Source of the DNA: Promethearchaeota archaeon
Lineage (GTDB): Archaea > Asgardarchaeota > Lokiarchaeia > Sigyniarchaeales > SOKP01
DNA: 64,000 nt
NCBI GenBank assembly: GCA_011364975.1
Contig: RDOE01000002.1
Span: 37,188-101,187 of the forward strand
Direction of reading: 5' to 3'
The position numbers and the translations under genes are program-made. Positions 2-9,401 of the stretch are shown here, piece after piece. The notes below the pieces were generated by a model, which did not search any database, was not told where the DNA came from, and saw nothing but the letters and a program-made list of their open reading frames with translations. Position 1 is the stretch's first letter. Each line of letters opens with the position of its first letter.

Positions 2-313
2 ATTCCAGATGATGATGTTAAAACCAAAACCCCTGAACCTAAAGTAATTCAGGAAGGGAAAAAGATTTCAGTCTACTTCATGTCAACTATAGGTCCAGGT
101 GAAAAAAAGCAAAAACTGTTAATTAACACGGGAAATAAGGTTGGTGATGTAAAAGAAACCGCTGCAAATTTGTTTGGTTTAGATCCTGCTGACTTTCATT
201 TATCCTCGAGTGGGGTTACGATGGATGAAAATTCAAGCTTAAACGATTATAATATAGCTGATGGAGATGATATTCTTTTGATTCCGGCAAGCACCGCGGG
301 ATTAAAATGTTAA
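2..313 (+). CDS. Ubiquitin-like (beta-grasp) protein, paralogue 1; 5' end lies outside the window
   Basis: The frame is open from position 2 (IPDDDVKTKTPEPKVIQEGKKISVYFMSTIGPGEKK...), so the ATG at 80 is internal. Ubl pattern V.DVK...LFGLDP...L...G..MD...L.DYNI.DGD.ILLI, ending PASTAG-LKC. Near-identical core to 2171..2503. Confidence 0.85.
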   Translation: MPDDDVKTKTPEPKVIQEGKKISVYFMSTIGPGEKKQKLLINTGNKVGDVKETAANLFGLDPADFHLSSSGVTMDENSSLNDYNIADGDDILLIPASTAGLKC

Positions 314-330
314 TTAAATTTATAAAATAA

Positions 331-1152
331 TTAGCTTTTTCCATTAATTTTTTTTCTGGTAGGAATTAGAGCTAATTCATCATCATCTTCAATATTGTAG
401 TCAATAATTTTTAAATCATCATCTAACAAGATTCCTCCAGAGGAAATTAGAAAACCATCTGGATTATAATCAAATAAAACACCTATTTTCTGTTTGATTA
501 TATTTATCAATTCCGATGTATCAATTATCATTATTTTCGTTTTCTCACCAGGTTCAATTAATGATCGAACATAAACACGTATTTTCTCATCAATTTCAAC
601 AATTCTTTTTGGTGGGGTATAATTTATAGGATCGTCTGTGACACTTCTGTTTTTTATCATAGTTTCAATTAGTTGAATTCTCTCATCAGGATCGAAGTAT
701 AATAATTCTCTAATGAAAAAAATTTTATCCATTTTTGAAAGTCCCAATAGGTTTATTTTCTCTAAATCTTCTTTTTTAAATACAGAAAAGATATAGTCAT
801 TAATTTTTGGAATATCTTCAAATGATTCATTTGAATCAGCATAACTATCAATTAAAGGATTTGCCTCAAAGTAGTCTTCAATAAATTGATTAGCTAGATT
901 TTTTAATGATTTCTTTTGAGGTTGATATTTTTGTTGAGGTAGCGCTTTTTTCTTTCCTAAAAACTTATATGAGCTCTCTTTTGACTGAATAATGGTATAA
1001 GCAGTACTAGTAGATAATACAGCTACACTACTAATAGTTAAAAAGAGATATAAAGGAATACTCTCTACCCTCGAAAGGAACAATATTATATAAATACAAG
1101 TTACAACAATGTAGAGAGTTATTAAACCAAATGCTCTATTTTTATTTCTCAT
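331..1152 (-). CDS. Membrane-anchored protein (two N-terminal TM helices) with a C-terminal ubiquitin-like domain
   Basis: Two hydrophobic stretches at about aa 7-55. The last ~83 aa (IRVYVRSLIEPGEKTK...IKQKIGVLFDYNPDGFLISSGGILLDDDLKIIDYNIEDDDELALIP) align directly with the neighbouring Ubl paralogues. Confidence 0.8.
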   Translation of the reverse strand: MRNKNRAFGLITLYIVVTCIYIILFLSRVESIPLYLFLTISSVAVLSTSTAYTIIQSKESSYKFLGKKKALPQQKYQPQKKSLKNLANQFIEDYFEANPLIDSYADSNESFEDIPKINDYIFSVFKKEDLEKINLLGLSKMDKIFFIRELLYFDPDERIQLIETMIKNRSVTDDPINYTPPKRIVEIDEKIRVYVRSLIEPGEKTKIMIIDTSELINIIKQKIGVLFDYNPDGFLISSGGILLDDDLKIIDYNIEDDDELALIPTRKKINGKS

Positions 1153-1233: not shown

Positions 1234-1905
1234 CTACTCACCCACAATAGAGTTCATTATTTTTGTATATTTCTCAGTATCTAATCTAAATAATATTCTT
1301 TTATTATCTTTTTCAACCTTTATAATCCTTAATTTATGAAGAATTTTAAGATACTTTTTAATTGTATTGTAATTCTTCTTTAAATTCTTCGCTAATTGGG
1401 TAGCTTTTAAGCTATTTTCTTCTTTTAACATAAATTCGATTATTTCTTGGATAATTACTTGTTTTAAATAATAAGATAACTCGTCGTATTCGGGATTTGA
1501 CTCATAGTGAAAGATTATTCTTTGATTATCAATTTTTTTTGATCTAGTAAATCCAAATTTTTCTAAGCAAGATAAATGCCATAATACTTGATTGCTACCA
1601 ATATTTATCGCTTTCATAATTTCATTGATATTGGCAGGTTGTTTCTTGATATAATTATAAATTTCATTTCTGATTGGATGTTCGATAATATTATTTTTCA
1701 TTAATTTAGTTCCTGGTATTAGGATTCTTTTTTTAATTAGTTTTTTTATAATTTTTTCAATACTATTTTTATTCAAATTTGGGTTAAATTTCACCCTATT
1801 ATTTATATAAACAACAATATCCTCAATTGAAAAAAATGGCTTCTTTTTTAAATACTCCTTTATTAGATCACAAACAATAGCTTGAAGGGTATCAGAAGAG
1901 CTCAT
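1234..1905 (-). CDS. Winged helix-turn-helix transcriptional regulator (tandem ArsR-like wHTH domains)
   Basis: Two HTH-like segments (RNEIYNYIKKQPANINEIMKAINIGSNQVLWHLSCLEKFG; ATQLAKNLKKNYNTIKKYLKILHKLRII). Divergent from the Ubl-E1-E2 operon. Confidence 0.8.
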   Translation of the reverse strand: MSSSDTLQAIVCDLIKEYLKKKPFFSIEDIVVYINNRVKFNPNLNKNSIEKIIKKLIKKRILIPGTKLMKNNIIEHPIRNEIYNYIKKQPANINEIMKAINIGSNQVLWHLSCLEKFGFTRSKKIDNQRIIFHYESNPEYDELSYYLKQVIIQEIIEFMLKEENSLKATQLAKNLKKNYNTIKKYLKILHKLRIIKVEKDNKRILFRLDTEKYTKIMNSIVGE

Positions 1906-2170: not shown

Positions 2171-2503
2171 ATGAGTTTTGACAACGATTTTGATGAAGAA
2201 TTAGAGCCTGTTAAATCTAAAACTCCATCAAGTAAAACACCCACAACAGGTAAAAAGTTGACTTTATACTTTATGTCAACTATTGGTCCTGGTGAAAAGA
2301 AAGAGAAATTAACAGTGAATGACGCTAACCGTGTAAGTGATATCAAACAAACATTAGGAAATTTATTTGGACTCGATCCTGATGAATTTCACCTTTCATC
2401 TGGTGGAGTAACTATGGATGAAAGTAATCAACTAAAAGATTATAATGTTAATGATGGCGATGATATCCTTCTGATCCCAGCGAGTACTGCGGGATACTTT
2501 TAA
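2171..2503 (+). CDS. Ubiquitin-like protein, paralogue 2, with an acidic/Ser-Thr-Lys N-terminal extension
   Basis: Beta-grasp pattern as in paralogue 1, ending PASTAG-YF. First gene upstream of E1-E2-JAMM-RING. Confidence 0.88.
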   Translation: MSFDNDFDEELEPVKSKTPSSKTPTTGKKLTLYFMSTIGPGEKKEKLTVNDANRVSDIKQTLGNLFGLDPDEFHLSSGGVTMDESNQLKDYNVNDGDDILLIPASTAGYF

Positions 2504-2529: not shown

Positions 2530-2564
2530 AAGGGCATTAAGCCCTTTAATTTTTTTATTTTTTT
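2530..2564 (+). terminator. Hairpin plus T-tract between the Ubl and E1 genes
   Basis: AAGGGC-ATTAA-GCCCTT (2530-2546) followed by TAATTTTTTTATTTTTTT. Confidence 0.55.
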
Positions 2565-2578
2565 GATTAACATTTAAG

Positions 2579-3811
2579 GTGATAATATTGGATAAGGATT
2601 CAGATTTTTTTGCAAAAGGAATGTCAGCGGAAGAGAGAGATCTGTATGATCGCCAATTTCGTTTAGAAGGATGGTCTCAGAAATTGGTAAAAAACTCGAG
2701 AGTCTTAATAGCAGGTGTTGGTGGATTAGGTTGTGAAATTGCAAAAAATCTAGCGATGTTAGGAGTAGGTCATTTAGATCTTGTTGATTTAGACATTATT
2801 GAGCATTCTAATTTAAATCGTCAAATTTTATTTACAGGCGCTAAGTTAGGGGCACCAAAAGCAATTGTCGCGGCTCAAAAATTAACCGAGATTAATCCAA
2901 ATATTGTTGTGAAAGGATATCATTCTTCTTTAGAACGGTTAGACCCTGCTTTATACTATGCTGCTGATGTTATTATTGGAGGCCTTGATTCAATGAATGC
3001 CCGCTTGAATTTAAATGCTCAGTGTATACGCTTTAGAAAGCCGTTTGTAGATGGTGGAGTATCTGGTTATCATGGGCATATGTATTCGATCTTTCCTTAT
3101 CAAAATGCTTGTTATGAATGTAATCCACTTCCAGTATCGGAAAGTGATGAAATGGCGGCCTGTACTGTAGTAGGGGTTCCTCGAAAACGTATTCATTGTC
3201 TTTTTAAAGGAGATATGGCCTTTAAAGAAAAATTTGATAGAGATCCAAATCCAAAAAATATAACAGATATTGAATTTATTCAAAAAGTTGCAAATGAATT
3301 AGTAAATAAACATAATTTCTTACCAGAATATACAATAGATGATATTGTTAAAATCATTAATCGCCACGATCCTGGGATCATCACGATTAATGCGGTAATA
3401 TCTGCTTTAGAATCTCATGAGGCTGTTAAAATATTGCATTGGAAAAAAGGTCATAAGGGTTTAGGACACCCTATTGCGAGTTATGTAATATTTAATGCAA
3501 TGACAATGAAACTTTATCACATAGAAAAGAAGAGAAATCCAGAATGTTCTCAATGTGGTAAAAATACAAGGCGTGTGGTCATAAAGATGAGAGCTCAATC
3601 ACCATGTTTGAATATAATTCGAACATTAAAAAAGAATGGGTTTGAATTAGAGCCTGAATTTGAACCAGTTCTAACCCTGCAAGATTATAATGATATCTTG
3701 GTTTTAGATTTAGAGCAGAGTTTGATTGAGAATGGTTTGAGGAATTACGAATTTTTAACTGTTGCAGGGTTTAAGGGTGGAGAAATTTATGTTACCTTAA
3801 AATTAATTTAA
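2579..3811 (+). CDS. Ubiquitin-like activating enzyme E1 (ThiF/UBA family)
   Basis: YDRQ, GVGGLG nucleotide loop, DLDIIEHSNLNRQ, Zn pairs CYEC and CSQC, catalytic-Cys motif ACTVVGVPRKRIHC (UBA2/UBA3-like), and a C-terminal extension that may be a ubiquitin-fold domain. Confidence 0.93.
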   Translation: MIILDKDSDFFAKGMSAEERDLYDRQFRLEGWSQKLVKNSRVLIAGVGGLGCEIAKNLAMLGVGHLDLVDLDIIEHSNLNRQILFTGAKLGAPKAIVAAQKLTEINPNIVVKGYHSSLERLDPALYYAADVIIGGLDSMNARLNLNAQCIRFRKPFVDGGVSGYHGHMYSIFPYQNACYECNPLPVSESDEMAACTVVGVPRKRIHCLFKGDMAFKEKFDRDPNPKNITDIEFIQKVANELVNKHNFLPEYTIDDIVKIINRHDPGIITINAVISALESHEAVKILHWKKGHKGLGHPIASYVIFNAMTMKLYHIEKKRNPECSQCGKNTRRVVIKMRAQSPCLNIIRTLKKNGFELEPEFEPVLTLQDYNDILVLDLEQSLIENGLRNYEFLTVAGFKGGEIYVTLKLI

Positions 3812-3903: not shown

Positions 3904-4431
3904 ATGAGTATAAGAAGTAGTCGGATTTCTCAAGATTTTGCAGGATTAAAAAAGTTACTCAAGGATGGTACTATTATTCAATTAAAACCTTTTAATCCAA
4001 AAAAGAAAAGCATTGATCATTTAGCAATTACGCTCAAAGGACCTAAAAATACAGCATATGCAGGAGGCTTGTTTAAATTGGAGATGAGTTTCCCTGCTCA
4101 ATATCCTAAGCAACCACCATTTGTAAGAATGCACACTCCGATATGGCATCCAAATTTTTGGCCAAAACCAAATGAATATAAGGGACAGAGAAATATTTGT
4201 TTAGCATTAGTGGATCCTTCTTTAGCAGGTAAAAAAGGAGGATGGAGTCCTTCAAAAACTGCTGTCACCATTGTTCAAGCCATAATTGCTATGTTAAATA
4301 CCAGTGGTAAATATGTAAATCCTACTGATGTGTTTAATAAGAAAGCTGCAATGGAAATGATGAAAGATCCAAAGTTTTTCGATAAAAAGGTTAAAAATTT
4401 AGTAAAGAAGTATGCAAAGGATAAATGGTGA
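3904..4431 (+). CDS. Ubiquitin-conjugating enzyme E2 (UBC fold)
   Basis: GPKNTAYAGGLFKLEMSFPAQYPKQPPFVRMHTPIWHPN...ICL...WSP; catalytic Cys retained. Confidence 0.93.
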   Translation: MSIRSSRISQDFAGLKKLLKDGTIIQLKPFNPKKKSIDHLAITLKGPKNTAYAGGLFKLEMSFPAQYPKQPPFVRMHTPIWHPNFWPKPNEYKGQRNICLALVDPSLAGKKGGWSPSKTAVTIVQAIIAMLNTSGKYVNPTDVFNKKAAMEMMKDPKFFDKKVKNLVKKYAKDKW

Positions 4432-4437
4432 ATCTAA

Positions 4438-5259
4438 ATGAATGAAGATGATAAGATTAGTATCTCGATTAAGGAAGCAGTTAAGCAAAAAATTAAAGAG
4501 AAAATTAAAAAAGAATTACTTGAAGAGATATATAATGAACTAAAGTTAGAAGAAGAATTAGAGGAAGAAATAACATTTGAGTTAATAGATACCAAACCGT
4601 TAGAACACTCAGAAAGTATTAAGGAAAAACTCGAACCCATTCCTATGGTGCCAGTAAAAACTACCGCTAATAGTGATAAAATTAAAGCACAAATTGTGAT
4701 AACTGTTAAAGCTGTTCTAAAGATCGCAAGTCATTCTTTAAAGTACGCTCACTCTAAAATTCCACGAGAAGATTGGGTTGAAGTGATCGGCTTGTTGGCA
4801 GGAAAATACGATAACGCAAAGGGAGTGTTATATGTTGAAGATGCTTATCCTATGGGTCATGGCACAGCTGTCTACGCAGAGATTAATGTTGAAAGGAATC
4901 GAAAGTCTGGTCATGAACGAGCGTATGAAGAAATTATCAAAAAGGGGTTATTCATTTGTGGATGGTATCATTCTCATCCTTCCTATGGTTGTTTTATGTC
5001 TAGAGAAGATTTAGGAACTCAAGCACGGTATCAAAAGTTATGGGATAAAGCTATAGCTTTAGTTATAGATCCATATCAAATTAATGGATTATCATTAGGA
5101 TTTGAAATATATCGTGCAAATTTTAAAACTAAAAAATGGTTTTCGGTACCTTTTGACATCAAGGGGTACTTAGACGTAAAAATGTTACCTGAGATATTAG
5201 ACTTTATGAATCCAATAATTGAGGGAAGAGCAGCCTATTTAGAATATGATGAAGAATAA
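4438..5259 (+). CDS. JAB1/MPN (JAMM) metalloprotease, Rpn11/CSN5-like deconjugase or Ubl-maturation protease
   Basis: EVIGLLAG...GWYHSHPSYGCFMSREDLGTQ...ALVIDP is an intact E-HxH-x7-S-x2-D motif. Charged N-terminal extension of about 80 aa. Confidence 0.93.
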   Translation: MNEDDKISISIKEAVKQKIKEKIKKELLEEIYNELKLEEELEEEITFELIDTKPLEHSESIKEKLEPIPMVPVKTTANSDKIKAQIVITVKAVLKIASHSLKYAHSKIPREDWVEVIGLLAGKYDNAKGVLYVEDAYPMGHGTAVYAEINVERNRKSGHERAYEEIIKKGLFICGWYHSHPSYGCFMSREDLGTQARYQKLWDKAIALVIDPYQINGLSLGFEIYRANFKTKKWFSVPFDIKGYLDVKMLPEILDFMNPIIEGRAAYLEYDEE

Positions 5260-5288: not shown

Positions 5289-6485
5289 ATGGTAAAAAAG
5301 AAGGGAATAGCAATAATATTTATTCTATTTCTCCTAATAGGACTTATCCATGGTTTAATTTCAATTTCACTAAATATTTCTTTAACCTGGATATTAATTG
5401 GATTGTGGATAATAGTTTCCTTAAAAATTATAGAAAATATAAGAAGACATCGCGAGTTTAATTCTCCTCATAATACTGCCTTTTTTGTTGTAATCCCTTT
5501 ATTCATGGGGATTTTTTATTCCATTTGGGGGTATTTTACGGGTATTTTTGGAGAAAATCTTATCGAAGGTTCGAATCTTTATTTTAGTGGTTGGAGTCTT
5601 ATTTTTGGATTTCCTTATGTAACATATGGTTCCTACTCATTATATCGTTGCTTTAAGAAATATAATGTTATTTATTTTGGGGCAAAATCTATAAAAGCTA
5701 AGACTTTTGGATTTATTTTAGCTTTTGTGGTACTTAGCTTTATTATAACTTATTGGATAATATTTTATTCAATATTTGATTATTTTGAGACAATATTAAT
5801 ACCACTTCATTTGTCGTTAAATCTTAATCTTTTAATATTATTTATTAGTTCTATTTTAATATTAACTATATTTGGATTTTTTGCTTCACAGAGAACCCTA
5901 CCTGCATTAACTAATGATTATATAGAACAACGAACGAGAAAAATAAATTCTTTAGCGAATGCTTCACCGTCATCTTTGCCCAGAACTCAGAGACGACAAG
6001 TAACAAATAGACACTCAATCCAAACGCCCTCCAGTAAAACTGAAACTATTGCTTCAAGAACTCGAACTAATTCATCAAGAACTACTCCAACCTCTCAAAG
6101 AAAGACTCAAAGGACCAAGATAACTTATAAAACGAATTCAACAAGAAAAACCTCTGGAACATCACAAAATCGAGGAAAAAAAATGCGAAATTTAGATATA
6201 TACAAACCTATAGCAGCATTACTTTCACCAGAAGATTTTAAATGTATTTTCTGCTTTAAATTACCAAAACTCCCCGAAGATAGAAGTAGAGGTATCATTT
6301 TATGCCCAAATTGTAAATATCCTGCACATGCAGATGAGTTCAAAGATTGGGTAAGAACTTCGAATCTCTGTTCAAGATGCAGTACACCAATTTCCTCTAG
6401 CTTCAGAAACAATCCTAAAATTATTAGCGTAAAAAATTATATGGTAATTTATAAATACTTTTTAAACAAGAAAAATAAAAAATAG
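5289..6485 (+). CDS. Polytopic membrane protein with a C-terminal RING-like zinc finger; putative membrane E3 ligase
   Basis: About 6 TM segments in aa 1-200, a Ser/Thr/Arg-rich linker, then CIFC-x16-CPNC-x4-H-x2-E..W..CSRC (6243-6380). Last gene of the E1-E2-JAMM operon. Confidence 0.78.
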   Translation: MVKKKGIAIIFILFLLIGLIHGLISISLNISLTWILIGLWIIVSLKIIENIRRHREFNSPHNTAFFVVIPLFMGIFYSIWGYFTGIFGENLIEGSNLYFSGWSLIFGFPYVTYGSYSLYRCFKKYNVIYFGAKSIKAKTFGFILAFVVLSFIITYWIIFYSIFDYFETILIPLHLSLNLNLLILFISSILILTIFGFFASQRTLPALTNDYIEQRTRKINSLANASPSSLPRTQRRQVTNRHSIQTPSSKTETIASRTRTNSSRTTPTSQRKTQRTKITYKTNSTRKTSGTSQNRGKKMRNLDIYKPIAALLSPEDFKCIFCFKLPKLPEDRSRGIILCPNCKYPAHADEFKDWVRTSNLCSRCSTPISSSFRNNPKIISVKNYMVIYKYFLNKKNKK

Positions 6486-7570: not shown

Positions 7571-8743
7571 ATGTCTAATTTAATAATTAAGAGTGATTTT
7601 GGGTTTATAGGTGAGGATTTAGAGCTAAAAGCAGAGATATCCATCACCATCAACGAAAAAGGAAGGATTAAAGATATAGATTGTAAAGATATAGGGGATT
7701 CAAACAACATAAAGTATAATGAAAATTCCTCGTTAATCATTCCTGGATTAATTAACTCTCACATTCATATTGGTGATAGCTTTGCGAGAGAATTAGGATA
7801 TAATAAACATTTAATTGATGTTGTTGCGCCACCAAATGGATTAAAACATAAACTTTTGAATATAGTTGACAGAAATCTTATGATAAAAGGTATAAAAACA
7901 GCTATAGCTGAAATGTTATCATATGGAATTACATTTTTCATTGATTATCGGGAAAATGGTTTGGATGGTATTAAGATACTTCAAGAAGCTCTTAAAGACA
8001 CTTCCATTAGAAGGATGATACTAGGAAGACCGAATTATGATAAAGAGTTAGAAACGATATATAAGGAAGCCGATGGAGTAGGGTTTGCAAGTTATAATCA
8101 TGTGTCAAATAAAATCAGAGAGAAACTTAAACTAATAAAAAAGACAATTCCTGGAAAAATTATATCTTGTCATGATGGTGAATTAGAAAGAAATGAGGAA
8201 TTATTCGATAAATTAGTTAACGATAGGTTAATTAATGTTATAATCCATGGTACTCATTATAATGAGCAAGATTTAGAGGCAATAAAACAAAGAGCCATTT
8301 CATTGGTATTATGCCCTAGAAGTAATGGATATTTTGGATTGGGATTTCCTCCGATTTCCCAAATTATTAGGCTGCGTATTCCAATAAGCATAGGAACTGA
8401 TAATGTGATGGTAAACAACCTTGATTTATTCGAAGAATTACGTTATTTATATCGGATATACAGGGTATTAGATAAGGATAAAAAAAATCCACTCTTACCA
8501 TCCAGAGAACTACTAAAAATGATTACTATTAATGCCGCGAGAAATTTCAAAATAGAGGAAGATCATGGTTCCATATCCAAAGGTAAGTTTGCAGATTTTT
8601 TTAAGGTAAATCTAGCTGCAACTAACTTTTACAGCATTTATACAAATACAGCGCATTTCTGTGACTTATTAGTTCAAAGATTAAAGTCAAATAACATTAG
8701 CAAAGTATATATTGGAGGTAAGACGGTTTATGAAAGAGATTGA
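7571..8743 (+). CDS. Metal-dependent amidohydrolase/deaminase
   Basis: IIPGLINSHIHIGD (HxH), HDGE, IHGTH, LCPRSN, GTDN, GSISKGKFAD. Confidence 0.85.
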   Translation: MSNLIIKSDFGFIGEDLELKAEISITINEKGRIKDIDCKDIGDSNNIKYNENSSLIIPGLINSHIHIGDSFARELGYNKHLIDVVAPPNGLKHKLLNIVDRNLMIKGIKTAIAEMLSYGITFFIDYRENGLDGIKILQEALKDTSIRRMILGRPNYDKELETIYKEADGVGFASYNHVSNKIREKLKLIKKTIPGKIISCHDGELERNEELFDKLVNDRLINVIIHGTHYNEQDLEAIKQRAISLVLCPRSNGYFGLGFPPISQIIRLRIPISIGTDNVMVNNLDLFEELRYLYRIYRVLDKDKKNPLLPSRELLKMITINAARNFKIEEDHGSISKGKFADFFKVNLAATNFYSIYTNTAHFCDLLVQRLKSNNISKVYIGGKTVYERD

Positions 8744-9401
8744 ACGACCATATATAATTTTAAGTTGTGCAATGACTATAGATGGAAAAATAGCATCTAA
8801 AATAGGTGATACCGAGTTATCTGATGAGATAGATTGGAGAGAGGTACATAAGCTTAGAAGCAAAGTAGACGCAATCCTTGTGGGAAAAGGGACAATTATA
8901 AAAGACAATCCGAAACTTCATATTAAATTTGTAGATCATCAAGGATATTACAGACTGGTTGTTGATAGTAACCTTTCAATACCTATTGATGCACAAGTTA
9001 TTAAGTATAAACCAGATCTCTATCCTACAATAATAATTACTACTGAAAATATAAAGTTGAATAAAGTTGCTCAATATGAAAAAGCGGGAGTTAAAATTAT
9101 AAAATCAGGCAAACAAGAAAGGGTAGATATTATTAAATTAATGCCTTTACTTTATCAAAAAGGAATTCATAAAATATTATTAGAAGGAGGCGGTAATCTA
9201 AATTGGAGTTTTATTAAGGCGAAATTAGTAGATGAATTGCGAATAACTATAGCTCCTTGGATTATTGGTGGTGAAAATGCTGTAAGTATAGTTGAAGGAG
9301 ATGGCTTTTTAAAGATGATTGAATGTCCTAGGTTTAGATTAATAGAAACAAAACAATGGAATAATTATATTACCTTATTTTATGAAAAGGATTATGAATG
9401 A
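8730..9401 (+). CDS. arfC: 2,5-diamino-6-(ribosylamino)-4(3H)-pyrimidinone 5'-phosphate reductase (RibD C-terminal/Rib7 type)
   Basis: PYIILSCAMTIDGKIA, VHKLRSKVDAILVGKGTIIKDNPKL, LEGGG. ATG at 8730 follows GGAGGT. Confidence 0.88.
   Translation: MKEIERPYIILSCAMTIDGKIASKIGDTELSDEIDWREVHKLRSKVDAILVGKGTIIKDNPKLHIKFVDHQGYYRLVVDSNLSIPIDAQVIKYKPDLYPTIIITTENIKLNKVAQYEKAGVKIIKSGKQERVDIIKLMPLLYQKGIHKILLEGGGNLNWSFIKAKLVDELRITIAPWIIGGENAVSIVEGDGFLKMIECPRFRLIETKQWNNYITLFYEKDYE

Follow-up and report, generated by a model that had tools for sequence, protein, structure and literature searches.

Ubiquitin-like proteins of a conserved Asgard archaeal operon with an Ala-Gly end and unstable C-terminal tails

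A stretch of 64,000 nucleotides from a Promethearchaeota archaeon (assembly GCA_011364975.1, contig RDOE01000002.1, positions 37,188 to 101,187 of the forward strand; referred to as the window) carries two paralogous genes for ubiquitin-like (Ubl) proteins, Ubl-A and Ubl-B, together with genes for a predicted activating enzyme (E1), a conjugating enzyme (E2), and a JAMM metalloprotease. Both Ubl proteins are probably conjugatable modifiers of an operon that is conserved in Asgard archaea. Their reactive residue would be the Gly of an Ala-Gly pair, Gly108 in Ubl-B, and the drifting tails that follow it would be trimmed, most likely by the JAMM protease of the same operon. The analysis establishes the sequence pattern and its conservation, the instability of the tails, the fold, the operon, and the families of its enzymes; that the tail is cleaved off, that the end is adenylated and conjugated, and which protease acts, we infer.

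The features of the two genes on which this reading is based are as follows.
2171..2503, plus strand: Ubl-B, the gene under study, 110 amino acids (PF00240, E-value 8.6e-7, 29.1 bits)
Domains of Ubl-B: residues 1-27, predicted disordered N-terminal arm, in which K[ST]KTP comes after an acidic-aromatic motif; residues 29-103, beta-grasp; then a flexible ASTAG end
2489..2494, plus strand: codons of Ala107-Gly108, invariant pair and predicted reactive C-terminus once matured
2495..2500, plus strand: Tyr-Phe tail (TAC TTT), a non-conserved, putative propeptide from 3'-flank sequence
2..313, plus strand: 3' part of Ubl-A, a paralogous ubiquitin-like modifier, the start of which lies upstream of the window

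According to the translation of the open reading frame 2171..2503, Ubl-B ends with ...DGDDILLIPASTAG-YF, with the last codons GCG AGT ACT GCG GGA TAC TTT TAA, the Gly108 codon at 2492..2494, and the stop codon at 2501..2503. Ubl-A, with a whole length of 140 amino acids (L002 1381..1803), ends with ...DGDDILLIPASTAG-LKC. The initial annotation had described the paralogues as identical up to the Gly and divergent right after it. This is correct, positions included: a BLASTP alignment of the two proteins (65/95 identities, E 8e-49) stops at the Gly, and the final 14 residues through the Gly are identical, followed by YF versus LKC. Relative to the PF00240 cut-off of 25.4 bits, Ubl-B lies above (29.1) and Ubl-A just under (25.1). 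The only paralogues of Ubl-B in the genome are found in this locus, which comprises three ubiquitin-like genes.

Homologues were obtained by a word-indexed search, which gave 857 matches at E≤1e-3 of which the best 120 were examined, and by an exhaustive profile-free search of representatives of 50%-identity clusters, which gave 402 matches of which the best 150 were examined. The motif [ILVM]Px[ST]xAG is the last conserved element in all 120 best homologues (119 with STAG, one with SSAG). While 33 of these proteins end at the Gly, 87 have a tail of one (n=2), two (n=59), three (n=25), or four residues (n=1), and these tails represent 26 different sequences. Among the 150 best cluster representatives, 39 have the motif at most six residues from the end, at identities to the query down to 38-40%, and 16 of these 39 end at the Gly; the variable position of the motif is occupied by T, R, I, L, V, or H in this set, with Ala-Gly being constant. 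Residues L100, I102, P103, A107, and G108 are invariant in an alignment of 38 sequences (identity down to 38%), which shows no conservation past G108. Five genomes that belong to different families or classes within the phylum gave 11 matches, 10 of which likewise end with Ala-Gly. A diverged member of 227 amino acids from another class (L054 1093..1776, plus strand, genome G047) ends with ...IPVSIAA and, with this Ala-Ala end, speaks against a strictly fixed terminus.

Because Ala-Gly is constant in the best 120 homologues, in the alignment of 38 sequences, and in 10/11 of the distant matches, the conserved feature of this family is the Ala-Gly pair. The alignment of homologues, which had been proposed as a check, thus upholds the Gly as the point where conservation ends, but the Gly is not a single conserved residue as had been assumed, since the pair is invariant in 38/38 aligned sequences. 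Gly-Gly, the hallmark of the reactive end of conjugatable ubiquitin-family (PF00240) modifiers, is replaced by Ala-Gly in all 38 aligned sequences and in all 120 best matches. Judged from sequence, Ala-Gly appears to take the place of the Gly-Gly of ubiquitin as the reactive end, with [ILV]IPx[ST]xAG as family signature. Members were found in 194 of 400 genomes from the phylum; within the taxonomic family of the window, 119 of 134 genomes have them.

The tails, in contrast, are 3'-flanking DNA that is read in shifting frames; they are evolutionarily unstable and appear to represent propeptides without a conserved masking sequence. This view is based on comparisons of reading frames across loci and on repeated changes between tailed and tail-less states. 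The DNA past the Gly codon was compared in 50 distinct loci. Tail-less relatives have GGA TAA ACT TAT ATA ATT after the motif, and the RLI tail (GGT AGA CTT ATA TAA) corresponds to this flank minus one base at the junction of Gly and stop codon; the KLI tail is of the RLI type and one substitution away. In the same way, the TFK tail (GGT ACT TTT AAA TAA) corresponds to the YF version of the window (GGA TAC TTT TAA ATA ATT) minus one base. The LKC tail of Ubl-A (GGA TTA AAA TGT TAA) resembles the tail-less sequence GGT TAA AAA... plus one inserted base, and seven other Ubl-A orthologues have no tail. The tails K and N are located in a short duplication of the end of the gene. A FastTree tree calculated for these 120 proteins with the tail columns removed implies at least 11 changes between tail and no tail, compared to 23-32 changes (mean 28.9) with shuffled tail labels; the tree of these short and similar sequences is weakly resolved, and 11 changes are a rough count. 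According to the proposed mechanism, the loss or shift of a stop codon would cause the AT-rich 3' flank to be read up to the next stop codon, which would generate a tail, and tails would appear and vanish in this way between close relatives.

One set of data does not fit freely drifting tails. The tail codons TAC TTT are identical in 13 of 14 YF/YV loci of the same genus, while all five upstream codons vary at synonymous sites in these 14 loci and the downstream bases are conserved as well. This pattern points to a constraint on the nucleic acid at this site because the tail codons are followed by a further element:
2530..2556, plus strand: terminator-like hairpin with a T-run, between Ubl-B and E1 (1 found versus 0.1 expected in shuffles)
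The YF codons could also reflect a mild constraint on the tail itself. The position of the hairpin suggests that the modifier may be transcribed in excess of the enzymes of the operon. A look-up of RNA runs listed none that covers the locus.

Two proteins, P0121 with three Ubl units and P0122 with two, are head-to-tail poly-Ubl fusions, in which the units are joined by ...AG followed by the acidic arm. The release of such units with a free Ala-Gly end requires an endopeptidase cut after the Gly. The weight of these fusions is reduced by the fact that both are single observations, located on contigs of 1250 and 1161 bases, and that no fused Ubl turned up when 400 genomes were searched with P0121, the fusion of three units. 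This search matched 16 genomes, all of one family, with each match comprising one unit; one of the loci (L076) has two separate tandem genes. Taken together, the proposal that Ubl-A and Ubl-B are pro-proteins is well supported by comparison, with conservation ending at the Gly, many tail-less orthologues, tails that correspond to flanking DNA, and the two poly-Ubl fusions.

A tail would block the carboxylate of Gly108 that is needed for adenylation by E1, and tailed copies would require trimming, because this carboxylate should have to be free as in all E1-dependent modifiers. A different view is that tailed copies are never matured and either have no activity or work without covalent attachment, as Hub1 and integral UBL domains do, so that only tail-less orthologues of other genomes would be conjugated. 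Both free Ubls of this genome are tailed, and the locus also encodes a Ubl domain fused to a membrane protein that appears clearly non-conjugatable, both of which would agree with this view. However, it would leave an intact E1, E2, and JAMM without a substrate, as no other paralogue of Ubl-B was found. Furthermore, Ala-Gly is invariant in tailed copies too, and the tail state flips repeatedly among close relatives without any other change, which makes the complete absence of maturation very improbable.

The genes surrounding Ubl-A and Ubl-B in the window are listed below.
331..1152, minus strand: membrane-type protein with a C-terminal ubiquitin-like domain, 273 amino acids (PF00240, 26.8 bits, residues 195-262)
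1234..1905, minus strand: winged-helix (ArsR/HTH_5-type) regulator between the Ubl genes (PF01022, 2.7e-11; position conserved in 7 related loci)
2579..3811, plus strand: E1-like activating enzyme, 410 amino acids (PF00899, ThiF family, 6.1e-57)
3904..4431, plus strand: canonical E2 (UQ_con), 175 amino acids (PF00179, 2.7e-25; HPN and downstream Cys visible)
4438..5259, plus strand: Rpn11-like JAMM metalloprotease, 273 amino acids (PF01398, 6e-14)
5289..6485, plus strand: membrane protein, 398 amino acids, in which a Ser/Thr/Arg-rich linker is combined with a Cys-rich, RING-like domain at the C-terminus; candidate ligase (E3)

Ubl, E1, UQ_con E2, and Rpn11-like JAMM are encoded together, which is the gene content of an archaeal eukaryote-like ubiquitin operon. 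The order Ubl-E1-E2-JAMM-membrane RING-like protein is found in 11/11 assessable loci, including those of other classes; a twelfth locus, the contig of which ends right after the E2 gene, was left out of this count. This gene neighbourhood suggests that Ubl-B may be covalently attached to lysines via E1 and E2. The best solved relative of the JAMM protein is CsRpn11 from Caldiarchaeum subterraneum (7.5e-16), ahead of Rpn11, CSN5, and AMSH, and its zinc site (E115, H178, H180, S188, D191) is invariant in 11/11 orthologues. The JAMM orthologues also share a conserved acidic C-terminal motif, ...YLEYDE.

Within the Cys-rich domain of the 398-amino-acid membrane protein, 11 orthologues all have C319, C322, C339, C342, H347, W354, C361, and C364, giving the pattern C-x2-C...C-P-x-C-x4-H...W...C-x2-C. 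When a model of this domain was used for a fold search, nothing matched at E≤0.001, the best E being 0.18, and Pfam finds no RING. The weaker matches listed (E >0.001) are mostly RING and U-box domains, and the RING-like character of this domain is suggestive only. The membrane-type protein encoded at 331..1152 has a hydrophobic N-terminal stretch that, as read from the sequence, is probably membrane-spanning, and shows 36% identity to Ubl-B. It has a basic tail (...LIP-T/S-RK...) without Ala-Gly, its orthologues end with ...LIPSRK..., and in related genomes its gene keeps this position, flanked by the two free Ubl genes. The Ubl domain of this protein is probably not conjugatable.

For the removal of the tails, the JAMM protein of the operon is a plausible candidate. 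A complex of JAMM residues 85-273, Ubl-B residues 25-110, and Zn was modelled along with three controls, and the interface score ipSAE was 0.87 for the complex versus 0.09 for the best control. Among 80 solved complexes, 58 attained this mark, as did 2 of 110 mismatched pairs. Individual runs agree in at least 97% of the contacts, and the partner has a predicted local distance difference test (pLDDT) score of at least 90. In the model, residues 100-110 and the 36-41 loop of the Ubl touch residues of the JAMM protein that include E115, H178, and S188-D191. The protease would bind the body of the beta-grasp, thread ...ASTAG into the zinc site, and cut after the Gly whatever comes next. The same reaction would take the tag off target lysines, which is probably the activity under selection. 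An isopeptidase that is indifferent to the residue after the Gly would render tails harmless, so that they would be tolerated and could drift.

Several observations weigh against such a role in maturation. The JAMM gene is kept in 9/9 assessable operons in which the leading Ubl has no tail, with 7 of these 9 loci, all from the same genus, having been picked for the lack of a tail. As JAMM is kept where there is no tail, tail removal is not its conserved role, and deconjugation is probably its core role. One of these loci belongs to genome G248, in which neither free Ubl has a tail; its JAMM gene (L055 2259..3089, minus strand) is interrupted by an in-frame stop at the Cys immediately ahead of the GWYHSHP (HxH) motif, which could be a sequencing error or decay. 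The genome of the window encodes five other JAMM paralogues. For CsRpn11, it has been reported that a Gly77Ala substrate, which represents the Ala-Gly state, is cut much more slowly and a Gly77Val substrate is uncut, and that bulky residues just past the cut (Cys79Glu, Gly80Trp) block cleavage (PMC6043591). Because the Gly is preceded by Ala and followed by Tyr or Leu here, the operon JAMM would need a different pocket that admits these residues. Finally, the high score of the complex model may show likeness to the solved Rpn11-ubiquitin complexes (6FNO/6FNN) instead of binding.

Some of these points would equally agree with cleavage of the tails by another peptidase, either one of the five further JAMM paralogues or an unspecific carboxypeptidase that would take off two or three residues until the structured end is reached, with the operon JAMM acting as a deconjugase only. 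The retention of JAMM where no tail exists and the poor performance of CsRpn11 with a penultimate Ala and with bulky residues after the cut fit this explanation. It is nevertheless unlikely, since the operon JAMM is nearest to CsRpn11, an enzyme with both activities, the tail of the Ubl lies in the active site of the operon JAMM in the complex model, bacterial BilC does both jobs on a Ubl with Ala-Gly (see below), and the poly-Ubl fusions call for an endopeptidase, not a carboxypeptidase. Maturation by the co-encoded JAMM, as postulated by the initial annotation, is thus plausible from the intact motif, the relationship to CsRpn11, and the complex model, but it does not hold as the conserved role of the enzyme.

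An AlphaFold2 model of Ubl-B (mean pLDDT 76) has the strand and helix order of a beta-grasp over residues 29-103, with pLDDT <50 at residues 1-22 and 108-110. The best Foldseek match to this model is the ubiquitin of Caldiarchaeum (6fno_D, E 2.5e-8, target template modelling score 0.83; also 6fnn and 6fj7), followed by ubiquitin variants, ISG15, NEDD8, Hub1, and SUMO. The best structural matches listed include neither UFM1 nor Atg8. According to this model, Ubl-B is a ubiquitin-type beta-grasp protein nearest to Caldiarchaeum ubiquitin and unlike UFM1 or Atg8.

This bears on the analogy to single-glycine modifiers that had been drawn for the tails. UFM1 ends with Val-Gly followed by Ser-Cys, and in both UFM1 and Atg8/LC3 one reactive Gly is bared by removal of a short tail; these modifiers depend on the E1s UBA5 and ATG7, on different E2s, and on cysteine-type proteases. 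One Gly followed by a short tail in Ubl-A and Ubl-B resembles these ends and could indicate a UFM1-like or Atg8-like pathway. However, Ubl-B belongs to a different fold subfamily, and its E1, E2, and protease class differ as well. The best solved relatives of the E1 are UBA2 (1.2e-36), UBA1, and UBA3 (the last aligned over residues 34-335), with a range of 1e-36 to 1e-32 for the three, compared to 5e-15 for UBA5 and 2e-8 for ATG7, and its catalytic Cys can be read from the sequence. The E2 is a canonical UQ_con protein with HPN, and the protease is a JAMM protein instead of a cysteine protease. The locus was also considered as a member of the UFM1 pathway, which is marked by a UBA5-type E1, a UFC1-type E2 without HPN, and the UFM1 fold, and it differs from this pathway in fold, E1, and E2. 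A pathway of the UFM1 or Atg8 type is hardly credible here, and the analogy is superficial: in fold, E1, and E2, the system belongs to the ubiquitin/NEDD8/SUMO type.

The N-terminal arm of Ubl-B is bipartite, consisting of an acidic-aromatic stretch (net charge about -6, residues 1-13) and a subsequent basic stretch with K[ST]KTP at 2210..2224 of the window. Both motifs are conserved family-wide in the 38-sequence alignment and are kept also where other domains precede the Ubl. SUMO has a disordered N-terminal arm with a chain-forming lysine. Ubl-B is similar to SUMO in having a predicted disordered extension with conserved lysines ahead of the beta-grasp, but its arm has two motifs of its own without sequence relation to the arm of SUMO, and the protein has an Ala-Gly instead of a Gly-Gly end. 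Of the earlier description of a disordered, acidic, SUMO-like N-terminal tail, the disorder is retained as a prediction, the acidic character applies to the first stretch only, with the basic K[ST]KTP stretch next, and the likeness to SUMO is an analogy only.

A six-frame scan of the genome found five occurrences of K[ST]KTP, three of them in this locus, namely in Ubl-A, in Ubl-B, and in a coiled-coil protein. The latter comprises 367 amino acids (L002 102..1205, minus strand), adjoins Ubl-A just upstream of the window, and has the C-terminal end ...IPKYKIK[ST]KTPxxY; the motif at this end is conserved in six related loci. A function of K[ST]KTP as docking or acceptor site is a guess.

The predicted system can be compared with three described ones. 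In C. subterraneum, an operon encodes the modifier precursor pro-CsUb, an E1-like and an E2-like protein, a small RING finger protein, and CsRpn11 (PMC5654768, PMC6043591). Full-length pro-CsUb is described as refractory to E1, and the form cleaved by Rpn11 or truncated by a stop codon as active (PMC5654768). CsRpn11 is reported to cut precisely after the Gly-Gly of pro-CsUb and to cleave conjugates too (PMC6043591). The locus of the window shares with this system a ubiquitin-type beta-grasp modifier, an operon with eukaryote-type E1 and E2 and an Rpn11-like JAMM, and, by analogy, a C-terminal tail that would have to be removed before E1 acts. In contrast, CsUb ends with Gly-Gly followed by nine residues, whereas the Ubl-B family has Ala-Gly followed by 0-6 residues. 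In addition, the candidate E3 is a membrane protein of 398 amino acids instead of a small soluble RING protein, the N-terminal arm of Ubl-B is conserved, and a second free paralogue and a membrane-anchored Ubl are encoded in the locus.

The bacterial anti-phage system BilABCD, of type II Bil, consisting of the Ubl BilA, the E2 BilB, the JAMM protein BilC, and the E1 BilD, resembles the locus in the ending of the modifier. In BilA of Ensifer aridi, Ala98 comes after Ala-Gly97, and BilC cuts at this point; type II BilA homologues are reported to have up to nine residues past the conserved Gly. BilC pre-processes BilA and also deconjugates it, and mass spectrometry revealed lysines with an Ala-Gly remnant (PMC10557695 for all of these statements on Bil). 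A Ubl that ends with Ala-Gly plus a tail and is co-encoded with a JAMM, an E1, and an E2 is thus common to both systems, as far as this pattern, not the Ubl sequences, is compared. BilB differs in being a non-canonical E2 with a CEHH motif, compared to the canonical UQ_con E2 and the UBA2/UBA3-type E1 of the window. A search against an anti-phage defence library, dated 2023 and possibly without Bil models, gave weak generic matches only (E1 6e-16 with Cap2-type models, JAB 6e-6, E2 0.005), and membership of the locus in an anti-phage defence system was rejected.

For a Helarchaeial Asgard archaeon, an operon with E1, E2, a RING E3, as well as a pro-ubiquitin bearing a four-residue tail has been described, and this cascade is reported to be active in vitro after removal of the tail (bioRxiv 10.1101/2023.07.25.550441). 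The Helarchaeial modifier has a Gly-Gly end and is encoded beside ESCRT genes, whereas Ubl-B has Ala-Gly and is encoded beside a JAMM and a membrane RING-like protein. The archaeal eukaryote-like ubiquitin operon is a known type of system, and the removal of a propeptide by a co-encoded JAMM is established for both Caldiarchaeum and bacterial Bil. What appears to be new, from sequence comparison, is a fixed Ala-Gly end on a ubiquitin-family modifier that would be served by a UBA2/UBA3-type E1 and a UQ_con E2. Further differences from known systems are the conserved N-terminal arm, a candidate ligase of membrane type, and the presence of a Gly-Gly ubiquitin in the same genome. A full-text literature search found no description of an Asgard modifier with an Ala-Gly end, although the original Lokiarchaeota/Asgard genome papers could still mention one.

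The Gly-Gly ubiquitin is encoded by a separate ubiquitin-family gene of 84 amino acids ending with Gly-Gly-Lys (G000:C191:52411-52659, minus strand; L069 9409..9663; PF00240, 1.6e-10). This ubiquitin evolves slowly, with 93-99% identity across the family, and is found in 141 of the 400 genomes of the phylum, with matches that stop at Gly-Gly. Both types, Gly-Gly and Ala-Gly, occur in 31 of the 41 genomes of the genus of the window. When the neighbours of the Gly-Gly ubiquitin gene were checked for ESCRT, E1, and E2 genes, none of these and only unrelated genes were found. A second E1-like protein (524 amino acids, L033 4582..6156, plus strand) and an E2-like protein (172 amino acids, 8449..8967, minus strand) are encoded on another contig (G000:C132), where neither a Ubl nor a JAMM is located alongside. 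This pair may serve the Gly-Gly ubiquitin.

The presence of two modifiers with different ends in one cell motivates the tentative and rather doubtful idea that Ala-Gly is a specificity code that separates two ubiquitin-type pathways, and not a drifted Gly-Gly. The penultimate methyl group would be read by co-adapted pockets of E1 and JAMM, and the Ala-Gly pathway would be kept apart also from Gly-Gly sulfur carriers. K[ST]KTP, which is common to the N-terminal arm and the neighbouring coiled-coil protein, would be a docking or acceptor site in this scheme. If true, such a code would represent an archaeal forerunner of the split between ubiquitin, NEDD8, and SUMO.

For the origin of eukaryotic ubiquitin signalling, no better model is available than the ubiquitin systems of Asgard archaea. 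The Asgard and Caldiarchaeum modifiers described so far in the available accounts end with Gly-Gly (PMC5654768, PMC6043591, bioRxiv 10.1101/2023.07.25.550441). The Ala-Gly family, with members in nearly half of the genomes searched, has its own E1, E2, deubiquitinase, and candidate ligase beside a Gly-Gly ubiquitin, and this suggests that parallel, insulated ubiquitin-like pathways predate eukaryotes. The family also provides a simple handle on the reading of the penultimate residue by E1s and JAMM proteases. For annotation and proteomics, an Ala-Gly instead of a Gly-Gly remnant would be expected on lysine, and standard di-Gly searches would miss such tags; the last Lys or Arg of the modifier is located far upstream of its end.

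Members of the family are also found in larger proteins. Other domains are fused ahead of the Ubl in P0125, P0128, P0138, P0152, and P0254, and the Ubl of these proteins still ends at Ala-Gly. One of the fusion proteins is named a VWA-domain protein by its source, and the others appear Roadblock-like, ATPase-like, or zinc-ribbon-like by eye. In one protein of 1395 amino acids, the Ubl is located in the middle of the protein and is followed by about 670 further residues.

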